NCBI GenBank assembly: GCA_037444485.1
Contig: JBBIMI010000001.1
Coordinates: 50,110 to 114,109, forward strand
Direction: 5' to 3'
DNA from: Candidatus Micrarchaeota archaeon
Lineage (GTDB): Archaea; Micrarchaeota; Micrarchaeia; Norongarragalinales; Norongarragalinaceae
DNA: 64,000 nucleotides
Positions within the stretch are counted from its first letter, which is position 1; each line of letters opens with the position of its first letter. The translations under genes and the position numbers were made by a program. Under the pieces are notes generated by a model that saw nothing but the letters and a program-made list of their open reading frames with translations, ran no database searches and was not told the DNA's origin. Positions 3,767-40,300 of this stretch are shown here, in pieces.

Positions 3767-6145
3767 TTATTCGAACACTTTCACAGAAAACTCTTTCTCG
3801 CTGCGCTTTACTTCGACAACCCTTGCCTTCGCAATAACCTTGATTTCGTCAACAACGTCAGCCAACAAACGCGCTTCCTCTATTCCGACGCCGACTTCAA
3901 CGCACTCTACAGGTGCATTCAACGCGAGTCCCTTCGCTGCCTTGAACTTGCGCGTTTCACTCAACACTAAATGCATCAAGTCCACTGTTTTTTTAACGCT
4001 CGCGTCGCAAACTCGTTTCGGTTCAGGCCACCCCTGTACATGCAGACTCTCGCCGCGCTTTGCGAACAACTGCGAATAAATTTCTTCAGTAGTGTAAGGT
4101 GCGAAAGGCGCGAGCAGCTTGAGAGTAGTTTCAAGAACTTCACGTAATGCGTGCTGTGCGCCGCGTTTTGACTCTGCGTCAGCGCCGTAAATCCTGTGCT
4201 TGACGTCTTCCAAGTAGTAATCGCAGAACGAGTGCCAAAAGAACGACTGCACTGCAGTAATCGCGGCATAGTAATCGAATTCCTCCATTGCTTTAGTCGC
4301 GATGCGAATAGTCTCGCTTAACTCGCCGAGAATCCACTTGTCAACGATGCTTTCTTTCGCTTTCGCACTCGCGTCAAAGCCTTCTAGAGCCTTTTCCACG
4401 AATTTGGAGGCGTTCCATAACTTCGTCAAAAAAGATTGCGCGAAATCAATGTCCTTCCAACTAAACACGACGTCTTTTCCAGTGCGTCCACTTAAGGCAG
4501 TCCACTGGCGTAACGCATCAACGCTAGCGCGTTTTATTACGTCCTTCGCTTCAACGTAATTGCCGAGCGACTTACTCATTTTCTTGCCGTCAACACCTAA
4601 AACCATTCCATTCACGAGCACTGTCCCGAAAGCAGGTTTGCCTGTAAGCGCCAAGCAACGGTAAATAGTGTAAAACGCCCAAGTGCGAATAATGTCGGTT
4701 CCCTGCGGCCGAAGCGAAACCGGAAAAAAACGCTTGAACTTCTCCTCGTCACGCGTCCAGCCTGAAATCACGAGCGGGGTGACGCTCGAGTCAACCCAAC
4801 CGTCGCAAACGCTTTCCTCGCCGGCAAGCGAACCGCCGCAAGAACACTTCGCGCGAGGCGGCGCGTCAACAGTCGGGTCTACCGGCAACGCGTTTTCTTT
4901 TTGCGCAAATACTTTGCCGCATTTTACGCAATACCAAAAAGGAATCGGAATGCCGAAAGCCCTCTGGCGCGAAATGCACCAATCCCATTCGAGTGCGTCA
5001 ACCCAATCCAGCAATAACTGCCGCGAGTGTTCGGGAATCCAACGCATTTCCCCGCTCGCTTTTTTTACTTCTTGTTTGAAGTTGGATAACTTGGCAAACC
5101 ACTGCGTGGACTCGATGAACTCGACTGCGTGCTTGCAGCGGTCGTGAATCTTTACAGTCTGCTTTAAAGCCTCTGTTTTTTTCAACAAACCTTTTTCTGC
5201 AAGCTTGCCAACGATTTTCTCGCGCGCTTGAACAACAGTCAATCCGTCTAGCTCGCCTGCGTTCGCGAGTTCACCCCGCTCGTTCATCGCCTTTATTATA
5301 GGCAGCTTGTGACGGTAAGCCCAGACAACGTCAGTCTTGTCTCCGAAAGTGCACACCATCACGGCGCCTGTTCCGAAATTCGGGTCCACGTCAGAATCCG
5401 CCAAGATTTTTACAGTTTTTCCAAACAAAGGCGTAGTCAACGTTTTTCCAACGAATTGCTTGAAACGCTCGTCGCCGGGGTTGACGAGAACCGCAACGCA
5501 AGCGTGCAGCAATTCTGGGCGCGTGGTCGCGATCTGGAACGCTTTTCCATCGACAGTCTTGAAGTCGATAAAGTAAAGCACTGAATCCCGCTCTATTTCC
5601 TCAGTCTCCGCCTTCGCAATCGCGCTTGCGCACTTCGTACACCACAAGACCGGGTGCCTAGCGCGGTAAACCAGTTTTTTTTCGAACATCTTTAATAAAG
5701 AGTATTGAACTAGTTTCTTGTACTCGGCGCTCGTCGTGAAGTACTCTGACCGCCAGTCGATGCTGAAACCCATCAACTTCATCTGCGGCCGAATTGAAGC
5801 GATGTTAGCGTTCGTCCACTCTAGACACTTTTCGCGAAACTCTTTCTTCGGCAAACGCCCGTACTTCGCTTCAACCTTCACTTCAGTAGGAAAACCGTGG
5901 CAATCCCAACCCTGCGGAAAGAAAACATTGAAGCCCCGCATGCGCTTGAAGCGCGCTGCGAAATCGATGTAACACCAGTTTAACACGCTGCCTGTATGGA
6001 ACTCGCCGGTTGGGAAAGGCGGGGGAGTGTCTATCACGAAAACAGGTTTTTTCGAATCAAAGTAATCGAACTCGTGAATCTTTTTTTCCTCCCAAACCTT
6101 CAACCATTTTTCTTGAATTTTTTCGTGAACGAGTTTATCAAGCAC
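3767..6145 (-). CDS. valS: Valine--tRNA ligase
   Basis: IDTPPP, HIGH variant HTGS, TTRPEL, DWCISRQ, KMSKS. Confidence 0.95.
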   Translation of the reverse strand: MLDKLVHEKIQEKWLKVWEEKKIHEFDYFDSKKPVFVIDTPPPFPTGEFHTGSVLNWCYIDFAARFKRMRGFNVFFPQGWDCHGFPTEVKVEAKYGRLPKKEFREKCLEWTNANIASIRPQMKLMGFSIDWRSEYFTTSAEYKKLVQYSLLKMFEKKLVYRARHPVLWCTKCASAIAKAETEEIERDSVLYFIDFKTVDGKAFQIATTRPELLHACVAVLVNPGDERFKQFVGKTLTTPLFGKTVKILADSDVDPNFGTGAVMVCTFGDKTDVVWAYRHKLPIIKAMNERGELANAGELDGLTVVQAREKIVGKLAEKGLLKKTEALKQTVKIHDRCKHAVEFIESTQWFAKLSNFKQEVKKASGEMRWIPEHSRQLLLDWVDALEWDWCISRQRAFGIPIPFWYCVKCGKVFAQKENALPVDPTVDAPPRAKCSCGGSLAGEESVCDGWVDSSVTPLVISGWTRDEEKFKRFFPVSLRPQGTDIIRTWAFYTIYRCLALTGKPAFGTVLVNGMVLGVDGKKMSKSLGNYVEAKDVIKRASVDALRQWTALSGRTGKDVVFSWKDIDFAQSFLTKLWNASKFVEKALEGFDASAKAKESIVDKWILGELSETIRIATKAMEEFDYYAAITAVQSFFWHSFCDYYLEDVKHRIYGADAESKRGAQHALREVLETTLKLLAPFAPYTTEEIYSQLFAKRGESLHVQGWPEPKRVCDASVKKTVDLMHLVLSETRKFKAAKGLALNAPVECVEVGVGIEEARLLADVVDEIKVIAKARVVEVKRSEKEFSVKVFE

Positions 6146-36070: not shown

Positions 36071-36419
36071 CTAGTATTAATAACTAGTTGCTGGCTTTTA
36101 GCCCGCTAAACTCAGGAATTCAAGAAAAGAAACTTCAAGAAAAGAAAAACAAAATAAAAAACAATGTAAAAAACAACAAAACCAAACTACAAAAACTAAA
36201 CAACAAAAACAAAAGGGGAGCGTAACAAGAGTGTTTTAGAAATTTTTTCTAAAACTTTTTTTGTTTGCCTCTCTTTTGCTTCTTTCTTTTTCCTTTTCTT
36301 TTTTTCTCTTTTTTTCATCGCGTTCGTTGCGCCGCGTCGTCTCACCCGCAGAATCAAGTGACGTGTTTTTACTTTTTTTCTTTTTAGAATAGCGGGGGGA
36401 GGATTTGAACCTCCGACCT

Positions 36420-36465
36420 TTACCCGGAAAAAAGTTTTTTTGACTTTTTTGAAAACTTTTTCCCT
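36420..36465 (-). other. tRNA-iMet intron at 43/44 (46 nt)
   Basis: Central helix ACCC/GGGT, bulges GG|A and AA|A, inner helix GGGAAAAAG/CTTTTTTCC. Confidence 0.87.
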
Positions 36466-36501
36466 CCGGGTTATGAGCCCAGCGGGCACTCCTGGCTACC
36501 C

Positions 36502-36534
36502 TTAGAGCACCACCAACCACAAAATCGATGTTGT
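36502..36534 (-). other. tRNA-iMet intron at 9/10 (33 nt)
   Basis: Central helix GGGG/CTCT, bulges TA|A and AA|G, inner imperfect hairpin. Confidence 0.8.
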
Positions 36535-36614
36535 TACCCCGCTGTAGTTTCGGAGTGCGTTTAAAGAATAAGTTGTGCGTGGTTATAATACTTTCTGGAA
36601 ATACGTTTAGACGT

Positions 36615-37193
36615 TTAATCAAACGGTCGAATTTTTGGTTGAACTTTCGAGAACGAATTTTGGGTGTTTTGCTGTGGGATTTTCTCCAAGATTTTTTTAA
36701 TAGTCTTAATGCGGGTTTCTATCTTTTTCAATTCTCGCTTGTTATCGTAAAAATTCATTTTCGACTCGCATTTCGGGCAACGGAATCGCTCTTCCATAGC
36801 GACATCGAACGGCAGCAGCGTGCAACCACGCCTGCACTTGTAAAACATCGTTTTCTCCGCTTCTAAAGTTTTTCGCGCGAGTTCCTCGTACTCCCTCTGC
36901 TTTACAGCAATAAAATTTTGAAACGCTCGTCCAGCATCGCAACGCCAAGTGTAAGTAAACCAGCCGCTGTTTAGGTTCTTTTCGCGGTGGTATTCGACAA
37001 GTCCGTATTTGTGCAACACGTTGAGAAGCGAGCGGATTTCAGCCATCTTGATTTTGGTTTCCCGCTCGATTTTCTCGTCGGTCGCGCCCTCCCCATTGTA
37101 AAGAGAGTTTATTATCTTCATGCCTTTGCGTCCGGAAATTTCTTGGACGTAATCGAAAAAGTGTTTCGTGAAGAAATCTAGTTTTTTCTTCAT
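36615..37193 (-). CDS. tfe: Transcription factor E alpha
   Basis: wHTH with TDEKI and SGWFTYTW; Zn ribbon CRRGC...FRCPKC. Confidence 0.92.
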   Translation of the reverse strand: MKKKLDFFTKHFFDYVQEISGRKGMKIINSLYNGEGATDEKIERETKIKMAEIRSLLNVLHKYGLVEYHREKNLNSGWFTYTWRCDAGRAFQNFIAVKQREYEELARKTLEAEKTMFYKCRRGCTLLPFDVAMEERFRCPKCESKMNFYDNKRELKKIETRIKTIKKILEKIPQQNTQNSFSKVQPKIRPFD

Positions 37194-37220
37194 GGAAATT
37201 CTTTTACAACCAACTTGTTT

Positions 37221-37778
37221 TTATATCTTGCCCTGTTTTCTCGCGCGCGGTGGTAGTTTAATAACTTTAATAACTTTTTCGCGCGGGGACGGAATTATTT
37301 TTATTCTAGCGCCGGAAAACTTTTTTCCCAATTCTCGGCCTTGAAAGAATTCGTGGAGAAAAACCGCGATTGCCGCAACTTCGGAGTGAGGTTGATTCGT
37401 GATCGAAACATTCCAATCCGCGAGCGAGTAAACTTCGCGGGGCACTTTCCCTGCACCAACAATCAACACGAGTTTTTTTTGTTTCCTTAATTCAGGCATT
37501 GCTTGGCGCAAGGGCAAGCCGTAGAACGTCAAATGCGCTTTCTTTCCGCCAACTTTCTTCAAAACGCGTTTCCAGTTTTTTTCGTAACGCGCCTTGAATC
37601 TGCCACCCCATTTCTTCACAATTTCGCGAACGGTTTCAAGTAATTTGTCGTCGCGTTCGCCAGAAAAAATTATTTCGTCGGCGCCGAATGCCCGTGCAGC
37701 TAGAGCGCAATGCGTCGTCACCCGCTTATCGCGGGACTTGCGGTGGCCTAGACGCAGCACCACGATTTTTGTAGTCAC
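37221..37778 (-). CDS. trm56: tRNA (cytidine56-2'-O)-methyltransferase
   Basis: LRLGHRKSRDKRVTTH, HLTFYG, NQPHSEVAA. Confidence 0.95.
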   Translation of the reverse strand: MTTKIVVLRLGHRKSRDKRVTTHCALAARAFGADEIIFSGERDDKLLETVREIVKKWGGRFKARYEKNWKRVLKKVGGKKAHLTFYGLPLRQAMPELRKQKKLVLIVGAGKVPREVYSLADWNVSITNQPHSEVAAIAVFLHEFFQGRELGKKFSGARIKIIPSPREKVIKVIKLPPRARKQGKI

Positions 37779-37951
37779 GGCGCTTACCTTTCACTCTTCT
37801 TTTTTTTCATTGGTTTCATTGTTTTGTTTCGGTTTAGTGAAACAGATTTATTTTTATTTGGCGGCATTCAAGTATTTTATTTCGTTGCATTGCATTGCCT
37901 TGCGTTGTTTTGCGCGTTGCTCGCGTTGTTTTGCGCCAGCCTTACTTTTGC

Positions 37952-38079
37952 GGGCTCGTAGCTCAGCTTGGCAGAGCGACCGGCTCTTAAGCGAAAAACT
38001 AAGCGAAAAACAGCAAGCGTTGTTTTTCTCGCGGTTTCGGGAAACCGGTAGGTCGAGGGTCCGAATCCCTCCGAGCCCG
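37952..38079 (+). tRNA. tRNA-Lys(CTT) with 54-nt anticodon-loop intron (about 37990-38043)
   Basis: GGGCTCG TA GCTC AGCTTGGCA GAGC G ACCGG CTCTTA[intron]A CCGGT AGGTC GAGGG TCCGAAT CCCTC CGAGCCC G. Confidence 0.9.
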
Positions 38080-38150
38080 CTCTTTAACGCCTTCCTTGAA
38101 CCCTTTAAAAAGAATGGTAAGGTTTTTATTTCACTTTAACGTAAGTTTCT

Positions 38151-38284
38151 CTTGCGGATTCTGTGAAGGTGGGTTGAACTGGTCGCCCTGCCGGCTTCAG
38201 GATGCCGCTTCAGGCAGACTGGGTTGGCCTAATTCTTTTTAAGGCGACCAATTCTCTTTTTCATCTTTGTTTTTTCACCGCAAG
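38151..38284 (+). ncRNA. Candidate structured ncRNA, unassigned
   Basis: Nested stems CTTGCG/CGCAAG, GTGAAG/TTTCAC, TGGTCGCC/GGCGACCA, CTGCC/GGCAG; TATA-like TTTTTATT about 25 nt upstream. Confidence 0.4.
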
Positions 38285-38344
38285 GTTTTATTTACTTCTC
38301 GCGTTTTCTTACTCAACGATTTCTTCCAGAAAGTGGTTTTTTAA

Positions 38345-39130
38345 ATGCGTTTTCCTTACGCCTCGATTATTTTGTTTTCGCTTCTTGTCGCGCCCTACTT
38401 TCTTTTTTCTGGAGGAACGCTTTACTTGCCTTCAGAGTTCTTGAACTCGCTCGCGTTGGGCGCTGGAATGTATGCGGGTTTAGTAACGCACTTGTTCTTG
38501 CATGTGGGAATACTTCACTTGTCTGGAAATTTGGTTCCCCTAATCTTGTTTTCGCTGTTGCTGGAATCGACGCTTGCTTCGATTGACGTGCTCGCCATTT
38601 TCTTTGCGTCCGGCGTTCTCGGCGGCGCATTGTTTTCTTTCCTCAACCCATCAGCGTATTTAATTGGTGCTAGCGCTGCGGTTTCGGGTTTGATGAGTGC
38701 GGCGACGGCATTGCGGCCGCGTCAAGCGCTTGCGTTTCTCGTAGCAACTCCCTTACTCGTTTCATTCATTGTTTTTCCAATCGTTTCCTCGTTTGAACGC
38801 GCTCAAGAACGCTCGCTCGAGCAAAAGCAAGCGGCGCTTCAAGCCAACTTGAATAAGTTGATTGAAGAAAACAAGACTGCCGAGGCCGCGCGAGTGAACG
38901 CTTCGCTTCAAATAGTTGAAAAGCAAGCGATGCAGACGCAGGAGGGCCGCTTGCGCGAGGAAACAACGCCAACCGATTTTCTAGTGCATGCTTTCGGCGC
39001 GTTCGTCGGCGTGGCCTTCTTGTTTTTCTTTAGAAAGAAAAAACTAGTGGAAGGCGCGAAAGAGTTTGAAGTGTTGGGCGCTTTGCTTTTCGCTTTCTTT
39101 GAGTGGTTTAAGCGCCGCGTGCGAGTATAG
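38345..39130 (+). CDS. Rhomboid intramembrane serine protease
   Basis: HLFLH...HLSGN, GASAA, VHAFGA. Confidence 0.88.
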   Translation: MRFPYASIILFSLLVAPYFLFSGGTLYLPSEFLNSLALGAGMYAGLVTHLFLHVGILHLSGNLVPLILFSLLLESTLASIDVLAIFFASGVLGGALFSFLNPSAYLIGASAAVSGLMSAATALRPRQALAFLVATPLLVSFIVFPIVSSFERAQERSLEQKQAALQANLNKLIEENKTAEAARVNASLQIVEKQAMQTQEGRLREETTPTDFLVHAFGAFVGVAFLFFFRKKKLVEGAKEFEVLGALLFAFFEWFKRRVRV

Positions 39131-39239
39131 CGAGTTATATGCGGCAAGCACATGCAGCGAGTATAAATACTTTTTTCGTTAAATTATTTTTGTTGATTTG
39201 TGTTGTTTCGTAGTCGCGGCCAAGCCGCCTTGCAGGGAT

Positions 39240-39278
39240 TGCGTTTGCATGAGTTGAGTTTTTGCGTGACGCACTTAA
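39240..39278 (+). other. tRNA-Cys intron at 8/9 (39 nt)
   Basis: Central helix AGGG/ACTT (3 of 4 pairs), bulges AT|T and AA|G, inner GCGT/ACGC, outer TTGC/GCAG. Confidence 0.8.
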
Positions 39279-39306
39279 GGCAGAGCGGCCATGCGCCCGC
39301 CTGCAG

Positions 39307-39346
39307 GTGTTGTTCCTGCACTGTTGCGTGGGTGCTGGATGCAGTA
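39307..39346 (+). other. tRNA-Cys intron at 37/38 (40 nt)
   Basis: Central helix CTGC/GCAG perfect; 3' bulge TA|A. Confidence 0.88.
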
Positions 39347-39352
39347 AGCGGG

Positions 39353-40300
39353 TTAGGCGAGTTCGACTCTCGCTCCCTGCTTTATCGCGCTGATAACGCG
39401 CGCGTTAGCGCGCTTGGCTTGCTCTTCGTTTAAGCCTTTCGTAATCACGTTGCCGTTAGGCAGCAAAACTATCTTGCCTGGACGCGTTTTTAATTCGATG
39501 ATGCGTTTTGTTTTTAAGCCGCGCACGTTGTTTTGGAAAAAGTATTCTTTGTTACCGCATAACGCGAATGCTGGCGTGGAAGCGTCGTCAGCCTCAACGA
39601 TTTCCTGGTTTTTTTCGGCAATGTTTTTTTTTGTTTTTGGGCTGCGTGCACACGCGACGCACGCCAAGTTTTTTTGTAGGTTTATGGTTGTTGAAGCGCC
39701 AGTTTTCTTGTCAGCGTAAAAAAGAATTCCGGCGTAACGCGGCTTGCCTTCAAGCAAACTAATCAATTCTTCAACTTGTTTTTTCGCGGCTAAAGCGGTT
39801 GCAGTTGGAGAAATTCCTTCCACGCTGCAGCTTCGCGGCAGCGTTTGTTTTGGATTCCAGCAAGCAAAGCAAGGCGTTTTTTCTGGAATTATTGTTGAAA
39901 TCATGACTTCGCTGCGTATTGCGGCAGAGAAAATCCATGGCTTGCGCGCGCGCAAGCAGTACTCGTTCAAGACGAAGCGCGTTTGAACGTTGTCTGTGCA
40001 GTCTAGCACGATATCCGTTTTTTCAAGCAATCGCGTAACGTTCCATTGGTTTAAGTGTTCGGTGGAGGCAATCACGTTCGCGCCAGACTTCTCTAATTTT
40101 TTTTTGGCTGCTGCGGCTTTGAGAAAGCCGACGTCGCCAGCATCGAATAGTTTCTGCCTCGGCAAGTTGTTTTGTTCGATAAAGTCTCTATCGATTAAAA
40201 CAAGTTTTTGGAAGCCTGTTCTCGCTAGTTGTAATGCGGTGTTCGCGCCTATCCCGCCGACTCCGACTACTGCAACTACTGTATCCAGTGTTTTTCGCAT
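39353..40300 (-). CDS. ThiF/MoeB (E1-like, UbaA family) adenylyltransferase
   Basis: VVGVGGIG, IDRDFIEQNNLPRQ, LDCTDN, TPCFAC, CVAC. Confidence 0.88.
   Translation of the reverse strand: MRKTLDTVVAVVGVGGIGANTALQLARTGFQKLVLIDRDFIEQNNLPRQKLFDAGDVGFLKAAAAKKKLEKSGANVIASTEHLNQWNVTRLLEKTDIVLDCTDNVQTRFVLNEYCLRARKPWIFSAAIRSEVMISTIIPEKTPCFACWNPKQTLPRSCSVEGISPTATALAAKKQVEELISLLEGKPRYAGILFYADKKTGASTTINLQKNLACVACARSPKTKKNIAEKNQEIVEADDASTPAFALCGNKEYFFQNNVRGLKTKRIIELKTRPGKIVLLPNGNVITKGLNEEQAKRANARVISAIKQGARVELA

Follow-up and report, generated by a model that had tools for sequence, protein, structure and literature searches.

A two-intron tRNA-Cys gene in a micrarchaeal genome and the possible part of its 5' leader in splicing an intron at position 8/9

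Archaeal interrupted tRNA genes and the tRNA-Cys locus

Non-canonical and multiple BHB introns have been described in the tRNAs of Candidatus Micrarchaeum acidiphilum ARMAN-2, where a three-unit epsilon2 endonuclease cuts them (Fujishima et al. 2011, PMC3239211, in excerpt). The locus studied here resembles that system in its enzyme type, its small genome, the many disrupted tRNA genes, the presence of both strict and relaxed motifs, and even in having an interrupted tRNA-Cys. The excerpts of the ARMAN-2 account (PMC3239211), however, place an intron of its tRNA-Cys at 59/60 and not at 8/9, and they hold no involvement of the leader, for which we propose a role. An extreme case of an intron close to the 5' end is the one at 3/4 in Thermoproteales (Yoshihisa 2014, PMC4090602, in excerpt), which is like ours in being so near the end that its motif must draw on upstream sequence, even though the position, the lineage and the enzyme, (alpha-beta)2 there and epsilon2 here, are all different. 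That flanking sequence may be needed is indeed implicit in the field, as tRNAscan-SE 2.0 includes 60 flanking nucleotides when it searches for motifs close to the ends (PMC8450103, in excerpt). In split and permuted tRNAs, moreover, leader and trailer build the BHB (Nanoarchaeum equitans, Thermofilum pendens and Cyanidioschyzon merolae; PMC4090602 and PMC3218864, in excerpt); a flanking strand that is not part of the tRNA is integral to the motif, as we propose for tRNA-Cys, and the endonuclease must therefore act before the ends are finished. Unlike those genes, the one described here is contiguous and colinear, and its leader would give only the far outer helix and presumably be removed by RNase P, not by the endonuclease. 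A search of literature text for a tRNA intron between positions or nucleotides 8 and 9 found none among the papers listed, the slash form "8/9" being beyond the reach of that search. Judged from its sequence, this gene appears to be of a known kind, one with BHB introns, and what seems uncommon is the position at the junction of acceptor and D-arm, together with a leader that takes part in a predicted splicing-competent fold.

The host is a Candidatus Micrarchaeota archaeon of the DPANN type, with a 0.96-Mb genome assembled in 58 contigs and 95% complete. Within the 64,000-nt stretch that was analysed, called the window here and used for all positions unless another contig is named, the interval 39232-39381 of the forward strand very probably holds a real and functional tRNA-Cys(GCA) gene, which two predicted protein-spliced archaeal introns interrupt (Table 1). 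An earlier note on this DNA had already placed a tRNA-Cys here with introns at 8/9 and 37/38, and our results bear out both of them; of the span that it gave, 39232..39346, the start was correct, while the end is that of intron 2 and the gene continues to 39381. None of the usual tools finds the gene as it stands in the genome. ARAGORN detects no tRNA anywhere in the unspliced window; an Rfam search of the window with E up to 10 matched solely an intron-containing tRNA at 37952-38079 and not tRNA-Cys; and the locus is absent from the whole-genome Infernal listing. When intron 1 alone was removed in silico, ARAGORN called tRNA-Cys(gca), and with both introns removed it returned the same tRNA as a 71-nt standard cloverleaf, the GCA anticodon sitting in a 7-nt loop. 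We also built our own SPLITSX-like pipeline, which starts from T-arm and acceptor seeds, enumerates BHB-like pairs of cut sites, applies a cloverleaf filter and finally runs ARAGORN, and its best solution consisted of exactly the same two introns, recovered independently. The acceptor strand of exon 1 is the same or nearly the same in the tRNA-Cys of relatives. The encoded 3' end lacks CCA and stops at the discriminator base, U73, which has an identity role in tRNA-Cys.

Table 1. Coordinates of the predicted tRNA-Cys features and of the other features discussed
Feature	Position	Strand	Description
Leader and first six gene bases	39216-39237	+	Diverged direct repeat of 39285-39308, the D-loop-to-anticodon-loop segment of the same gene
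Leader -8 to -1	39224-39231	+	Would form the distal part of the 8/9 outer helix; -1 and -2 with A12 and G13; C39229 (-3) mismatched
tRNA-Cys exon 1	39232-39239	+	G1-U8: acceptor 5' strand G1-A7 plus U8; pairs 7/7 with 39374-39380
tRNA-Cys intron 1	39240-39278	+	39 nt, position 8/9, hBHBh'-type motif
tRNA-Cys exon 2	39279-39306	+	G9, D-arm, G26, anticodon stem 5' strand, loop to G37; anticodon GCA at 39303-39305
tRNA-Cys intron 2	39307-39346	+	40 nt, canonical position 37/38, relaxed hBH type
tRNA-Cys exon 3	39347-39381	+	A38, anticodon stem 3' strand, 4-nt variable region, T-arm, acceptor 3' strand, U73 (U39381)
Initiator tRNA-Met gene	36390-36543	-	Exon 1, 36543-36535; exon 2, 36501-36466; exon 3, 36419-36390
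iMet intron 1	36534-36502	-	33 nt, position 9/10, motif 4,1,2
iMet intron 2	36465-36420	-	46 nt, position 43/44, motif 4,0,12
iMet genes of relatives with the 9/10 intron	loci L017, L019, L021, L022, L030, L042		
tRNA-Leu(GAG)	contig C8, 5133-5371 (locus L015, 234-472)	-	Gene at 5133-5361; 8/9 intron and D-loop intron
Intron-containing tRNA	37952-38079	+	56-nt intron in the anticodon loop
aTrm56 tRNA methyltransferase gene	37221-37778	-	Adjoins the intron-containing tRNA at 37952-38079
ThiF-family ORF	39353-40300	-	315 aa; domain at residues 3-212

This is the only tRNA-Cys gene that we found in the genome, and because standard finders miss it, the organism would otherwise seem unable to decode cysteine. 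The earlier note had named another intact tRNA-Cys gene as something that would speak against its reading; we looked for one in the 95%-complete assembly and found none, with searches that would not catch a divergent gene or one located in the 5% that the assembly lacks, and a loose anticodon-loop regular expression used in that search gave far too many matches to be informative. The rest of the machinery is encoded as well: an EndA of 388 aa that aligns in full length with the ARMAN-2 epsilon2 enzyme (PDB 4fz2; E value 6.8e-128), RtcB (496.6 bits), RNase P RNA (112 bits against a cut-off of 84) and CysRS. Epsilon2 endonuclease cuts both strict and relaxed motifs according to excerpts of PMC3239211 and PMC12397907.

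Intron boundaries and splicing motifs

The placement of intron 1 can be fixed without any appeal to a splicing motif. With a pattern covering the segment from D-arm to anticodon we found tRNA-Cys in 17 of the 25 other genomes of the same family, representing 9 genera (no match was obtained in the remaining 8 genomes), and in all 17 the acceptor strand, U8, G9 and the D-arm are contiguous, with no intron at 8/9; these relatives are kin, and comparisons among them overstate independence. The spliced 71-nt product aligns to the tRNA-Cys of 10 intron-less relatives with no gap and with 72-86% identity, and a shift of the intron by one base in either direction alters the product. Taken together, these observations settle the 8/9 placement and agree with the claim of the earlier note that only removal of 39240-39278 restores U8-G9-G10. 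Since the relatives are devoid of it, the 8/9 intron is a recent gain on the lineage of this genus. At 37/38, the tRNA-Cys genes of relatives carry introns of different lengths, or none.

Weak but independent support comes from a 445-nt contig obtained in another study, which is 95% identical to our sequence, spans 38905-39350 and retains the 8/9 intron, suggesting that the arrangement is maintained and does not derive from an assembly error. The four substitutions that this contig shows in the gene (39249, 39263, 39308 and 39316) all fall within the two introns; both of those in intron 1 are in its loop, and none affects the exons or the helices and bulges of intron 1.

The BHB is reportedly, after Marck and Grosjean in 2003, made of two 3-nt bulges on opposite strands with a 4-bp helix between them. 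The rule that we used spaces the two 3-nt bulges by 4 bp and sets each cut between the second and the third bulge base, and it also fits the canonical 37/38 introns of tRNA-His, tRNA-Glu and tRNA-Thr(UGU) in this genome. Applied to intron 1, it yields a 5' bulge made of A7, U8 and U39240 (cut after U8) and a 3' bulge made of A39277, A39278 and G9 (cut before G9), matching the boundaries defined by homology. The central helix has three of four pairs, A3-U39276, G4-U39275 and G5-C39274, with a G6xA39273 mismatch; the inner helix has 5 bp, 39241-39245 with 39268-39272; and the proximal outer helix has four consecutive pairs, C2-G10, G1-C11, U-1:A12 and U-2:G13. Measured against the strict hBHBh' rule, which calls for four standard central pairs and flanks of at least 2 bp, intron 1 has flanks of 4 and 5 bp and three central pairs plus G6xA, which would make its motif near-canonical. 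A motif with at least three of four central pairs, at least four outer and at least five inner pairs at a fixed pair of sites occurs at only 157 of 3,831,596 genome positions (4.1e-5). The pairing of leader TT and G1-C2 with G10-G13, as the earlier note had it, is exact, and the helix turned out to be longer than described there: past a C-3xA14 mismatch it extends in register, leader -4 to -8 pairing with G15-C20, so that 9 of 10 positions are paired, an extent with a null frequency of 0.0015. Intron 2 has the motif (4,5,0), in which all four positions of the central helix pair (C32-C35 with 39341-39344), the anticodon stem serves as the outer helix and an adjacent inner helix is absent.

Folding predictions bear on when such a motif could exist. 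The local minimum free energy (MFE) fold of 39212-39300 holds both the extended outer helix and the inner helix, with pair probabilities of 0.77-0.999 for the four proximal pairs of the outer helix; to hold the central helix in its canonical register costs 5.2 kcal/mol relative to this local MFE. In the full precursor, the fold in which the motif is enforced is 13 kcal/mol above the MFE, which forms an ordinary acceptor stem. If the cell does use the motif, it follows that the motif has to arise while the 3' strand is still to be transcribed, or else that the enzyme captures it. A competing hairpin, 39216-39220 with 39224-39228, rivals the extended outer helix and appears in the full-length fold.

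The 5' leader and introns at the acceptor/D-arm junction

To compare leaders, the 30 nt upstream of 18 Cys genes were set against tRNA positions 9-26 and the duplex energy was calculated. The gene in the window reached -15.6 kcal/mol, whereas the relatives averaged -7.1 and came no lower than -13.5 kcal/mol, and none of the 17 intron-less orthologs was as strong. The earlier note had proposed that the BHB uses the 5' leader, and the exact geometry, the 9/10 pairing and a leader that is the most complementary among the 18 Cys genes all argue for it. The two proximal leader pairs alone would prove little, because UU at -2/-1 is common in intron-less relatives and both positions are pairable in 6 of their 17 Cys genes.

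The origin of this leader can be guessed at, since together with the first six bases of the gene it aligns to the gene's own D-loop-to-anticodon-loop segment with a local score of 26 (shuffled sequences, 13.9 +/- 2.7; 1 of 1000 as good). Copy and source are joined at a shared UGCAGG, and the 3' half of the copy is the part that pairs with the D-loop. Unequal recombination or an att duplication by a mobile element, as modelled for Caldiarchaeum (PMC3293823), may have left this copy behind, and the complementarity of leader and D-arm could in part be a by-product of copying, in the same sense, a D-loop segment that is GC-rich and partly palindromic. TATA-like motifs lie at -53 and -70 of the gene; the use of promoter spacing as a clue to leader length was rejected, as this spacing varies widely among the tRNA genes of the genome.

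Two further genes have introns at or next to the same bond. The initiator tRNA-Met gene gives a 75-nt tRNA-Met(cat) when spliced in silico, and for its first intron the 9/10 register outscores 8/9, both in keeping with the 9/10 position that the earlier note had assigned. Among the matches listed, 6 of 27 genes of relatives, belonging to four genera and two families, have the same 9/10 intron. In all 7 genes with this intron the duplex of leader and D-arm is -13.1 kcal/mol or stronger (mean -16.8), compared with 2 of the 20 genes that are devoid of it (mean -8.9; Mann-Whitney p 1.2e-4, a value overstated by kinship); three loci were dropped from the comparison, one because its leader was shorter than 30 nt and two because they had no regular-expression match. 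The same contrast is seen within one genus, where the genome with the intron (G010) has -17.3 kcal/mol and the two genomes with none (G001 and G017) have -6.5 and -3.1 kcal/mol, and the leader segments complementary to the D-arm differ in sequence between genera.

In the tRNA-Leu(GAG) gene, position 8/9 holds an intron of 45 nt whose exon context is the same as in tRNA-Cys and whose motif is strict (4,4,7); a second intron, of 99 nt, lies in the D-loop. The 8/9 intron of this gene is missing in all 24 relatives with the contiguous pattern, its outer helix also uses leader -1 and -2, and these two leader positions are both pairable in only 2 of the 24. What distinguishes this leader is that bases -11 to -4 repeat the acceptor 5' strand, with 3 nt between this extra strand and the real one downstream, a feature found in none of the relatives listed and absent from the tRNA-Cys leader. 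In the unconstrained MFE fold of the Leu precursor the spare strand pairs with the 3' acceptor strand, which leaves the real strand to the outer helix and the intron to the inner helix, and the canonical motif can be enforced at a cost of only 2.4 kcal/mol. A T-rich core of the Leu intron that matches a few other places in the genome was judged to be low-complexity sequence.

The earlier note had also considered the acceptor/D-arm junction to be an insertion hotspot. As a recurrent site the junction holds up, with introns at 8/9 in Cys and Leu(GAG) and at 9/10 in iMet; as the sole hotspot it does not, for D-arm sites hold at least as many introns. There is no evidence that introns transposed between these sites, as 134 of 1000 shuffles were as similar to Cys intron 1 as Leu intron 1 is, 869 of 1000 as iMet intron 1, and 523 of 1000 as Cys intron 2. 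Narrow patterns for an 8/9 intron, which miss introns in other exon contexts, gave no other convincing case in 400 other genomes of the phylum, in species-representative genomes or in metagenome contigs. Matches were present in 30 of the 400 phylum genomes (2 genomes in the reversed control), where they proved to be conserved coding sequence, one ordinary tRNA-Leu and chance matches; the 10 matches in contigs of species-representative genomes were bacterial and due to chance, and the metagenome contigs gave 0 matches. In evolutionary terms, one genus has seen two tRNAs that share their local exon sequence acquire an intron at the same bond, with partial tRNA duplications in both leaders, and together with the iMet intron one base away, whose leader co-varies across genera, they make a small natural series for the study of intron gain and retention.

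Proposed processing and competing explanations

We propose that pairing with the 3' end is not the first step for the future acceptor 5' strand in the primary transcript. G1 and C2, joined by leader bases -1, -2 and -4 to -8, would rather pair with G10-C20 as the outer helix, A3-G5 would pair with the last intron bases ahead of the 3' bulge as the central helix, and intron 1 would fold on itself as the inner helix, so that the epsilon2-type endonuclease would meet two 3-nt bulges separated by four base pairs and cut after U8 and before G9. RtcB would then ligate the exons, and only after their joining would the acceptor and D stems form and RNase P trim the leader. The 37/38 intron would be taken out by the same enzymes through its relaxed hBH motif. 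The competing 3' acceptor strand lies about 100 nt further along the transcript than the 8/9 motif, so that folding of this motif is probably co-transcriptional, and its cleavage may be too. We give this overall explanation, a two-intron tRNA-Cys whose leader-assisted 8/9 motif is cut by an epsilon2 endonuclease, a probability of about 75%. Its parts are not equally secure. A contribution of leader pairing to splicing is, on balance, what the sequence favors, while a strict requirement that splicing precede RNase P cleavage, suggested by the leader complementarity and by the spare acceptor strand of the Leu gene, is somewhat less likely than not, and is weakened by the other introns in this genome that are devoid of any outer helix. 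If the mechanism holds, sequence outside the mature tRNA would be part of a splicing signal, and the order of two universal maturation steps could be read from DNA.

A broader reading, which we regard as possible and somewhat short of probable, is that introns at the acceptor/D-arm junction (7/8 to 9/10) form a distinct architectural class, with a splicing signal that the 5' leader co-encodes, either as a strand that pairs with the D-arm (Cys, and iMet in at least 5 genera) or as a spare acceptor strand that holds the 3' end (Leu(GAG)). Were this true, the order of processing would be fixed, with the endonuclease acting before RNase P, and a gene could gain such an intron only along with a corresponding change in its leader, for which the local duplication of a tRNA segment might provide a single step; the partial tRNA copies in the Cys and Leu leaders are a hint that such one-step duplication might occur.

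The alternative that deserves most attention accepts the same gene and the same introns and holds that the leader pairing is incidental, the epsilon2 endonuclease requiring only the central helix, one or two bulges and the inner helix, and the order of RNase P and endonuclease being free. This we consider unlikely, even though several observations point its way. The seven other non-canonical introns called in the genome (of which only the iMet introns and Leu intron 2 were checked against relatives) have 0-1 outer-helix pairs each, so that the enzyme evidently needs no outer helix, and the outer helix, hence the leader, may be dispensable; excerpts of PMC3239211 and PMC12397907 report cleavage of a relaxed hBH substrate by ARMAN-2 EndA in vitro. 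G1-C11 and C2-G10, moreover, are supplied by the tRNA sequence itself, the UU of the leader pre-exists in relatives, the duplex of the Leu(GAG) leader is no outlier (7 of 24 relatives are as strong), and tRNA processing steps are described as differing in order from one organism to another (PMC7714728, in excerpt). An incidental leader would, on the other hand, have to account for an outer helix that continues in exact register over nine of ten positions, for a Cys leader that exceeds every ortholog in complementarity, for the association of intron and complementarity in iMet that recurs even within a genus, and for a spare acceptor strand that the listed relatives of the Leu gene do not have. 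We therefore continue to prefer a leader that assists splicing.

Much less probable are two explanations that question the gene itself. The tRNA-Cys could be a decaying, non-functional copy disrupted by an insertion, with decoding left to a gene in the unassembled 5% or to an unrecognised copy, as an assembly in 58 contigs would permit, and about half of the tRNA-like matches fall below the Rfam threshold, so that other genes may be hidden. We consider this very improbable: the exons are intact and collinear with those of relatives, the stems are compensated, the insert sits in a splicing motif that would arise by chance at about 4e-5, the 95%-identical population keeps the structure with changes confined to the introns and outside the intron 1 helices, CysRS is present, and no other tRNA-Cys copy was found in the assembled genome. 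More improbable still is a different partition of the same sequence, either into three introns (small ones after pre-tRNA positions 22 and 42, plus the one at 37/38), a scheme that our pipeline also returned and that passes ARAGORN and a loose motif filter, or with the 39 nt kept as an extra arm. The former would build its D-arm from sequence absent in 17/17 relatives, discard 39279-39295, which is collinear with their D-arms, and call for three events instead of two; the latter would put U8 39 nt away from the D-arm, an arrangement seen in no relative. The two-intron gene with a leader-assisted 8/9 motif is thus the reading that we retain.

Several minor observations concern other tRNA genes and the neighborhood of the locus. 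Only 23 of the 41 Infernal tRNA matches genome-wide are above the Rfam threshold. Further putative non-canonical introns were called by our pipeline in Val(GAC), Gln(CUG), Lys(UUU) and Arg(CCU); they follow pre-tRNA positions 17-22, and none has an outer helix. In a relative of the same order (locus L005, region G033:C50:13934-13979), the 3' part of tRNA-Cys is duplicated about 1 kb away; the second copy comprises the anticodon loop, an intron, the T-arm and a different acceptor 3' strand, has no recognisable 5' part, and could represent a pseudogene or a gene that is split or disrupted in some other way. Three interrupted tRNA genes of the window share a stretch of 3 kb (36390-39381 region), and the aTrm56 gene adjoins one of them, the intron-containing tRNA. 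The last 29 nt of the ThiF-family ORF overlap the 3' end of tRNA-Cys on the opposite strand. Finally, the start of intron 2 nearly repeats the exon/intron junction (39300-39328), where CCTGCAGGTGTTGTT is followed by CCTGCAC-TGTTGCG with a period of about 15, as judged by eye.
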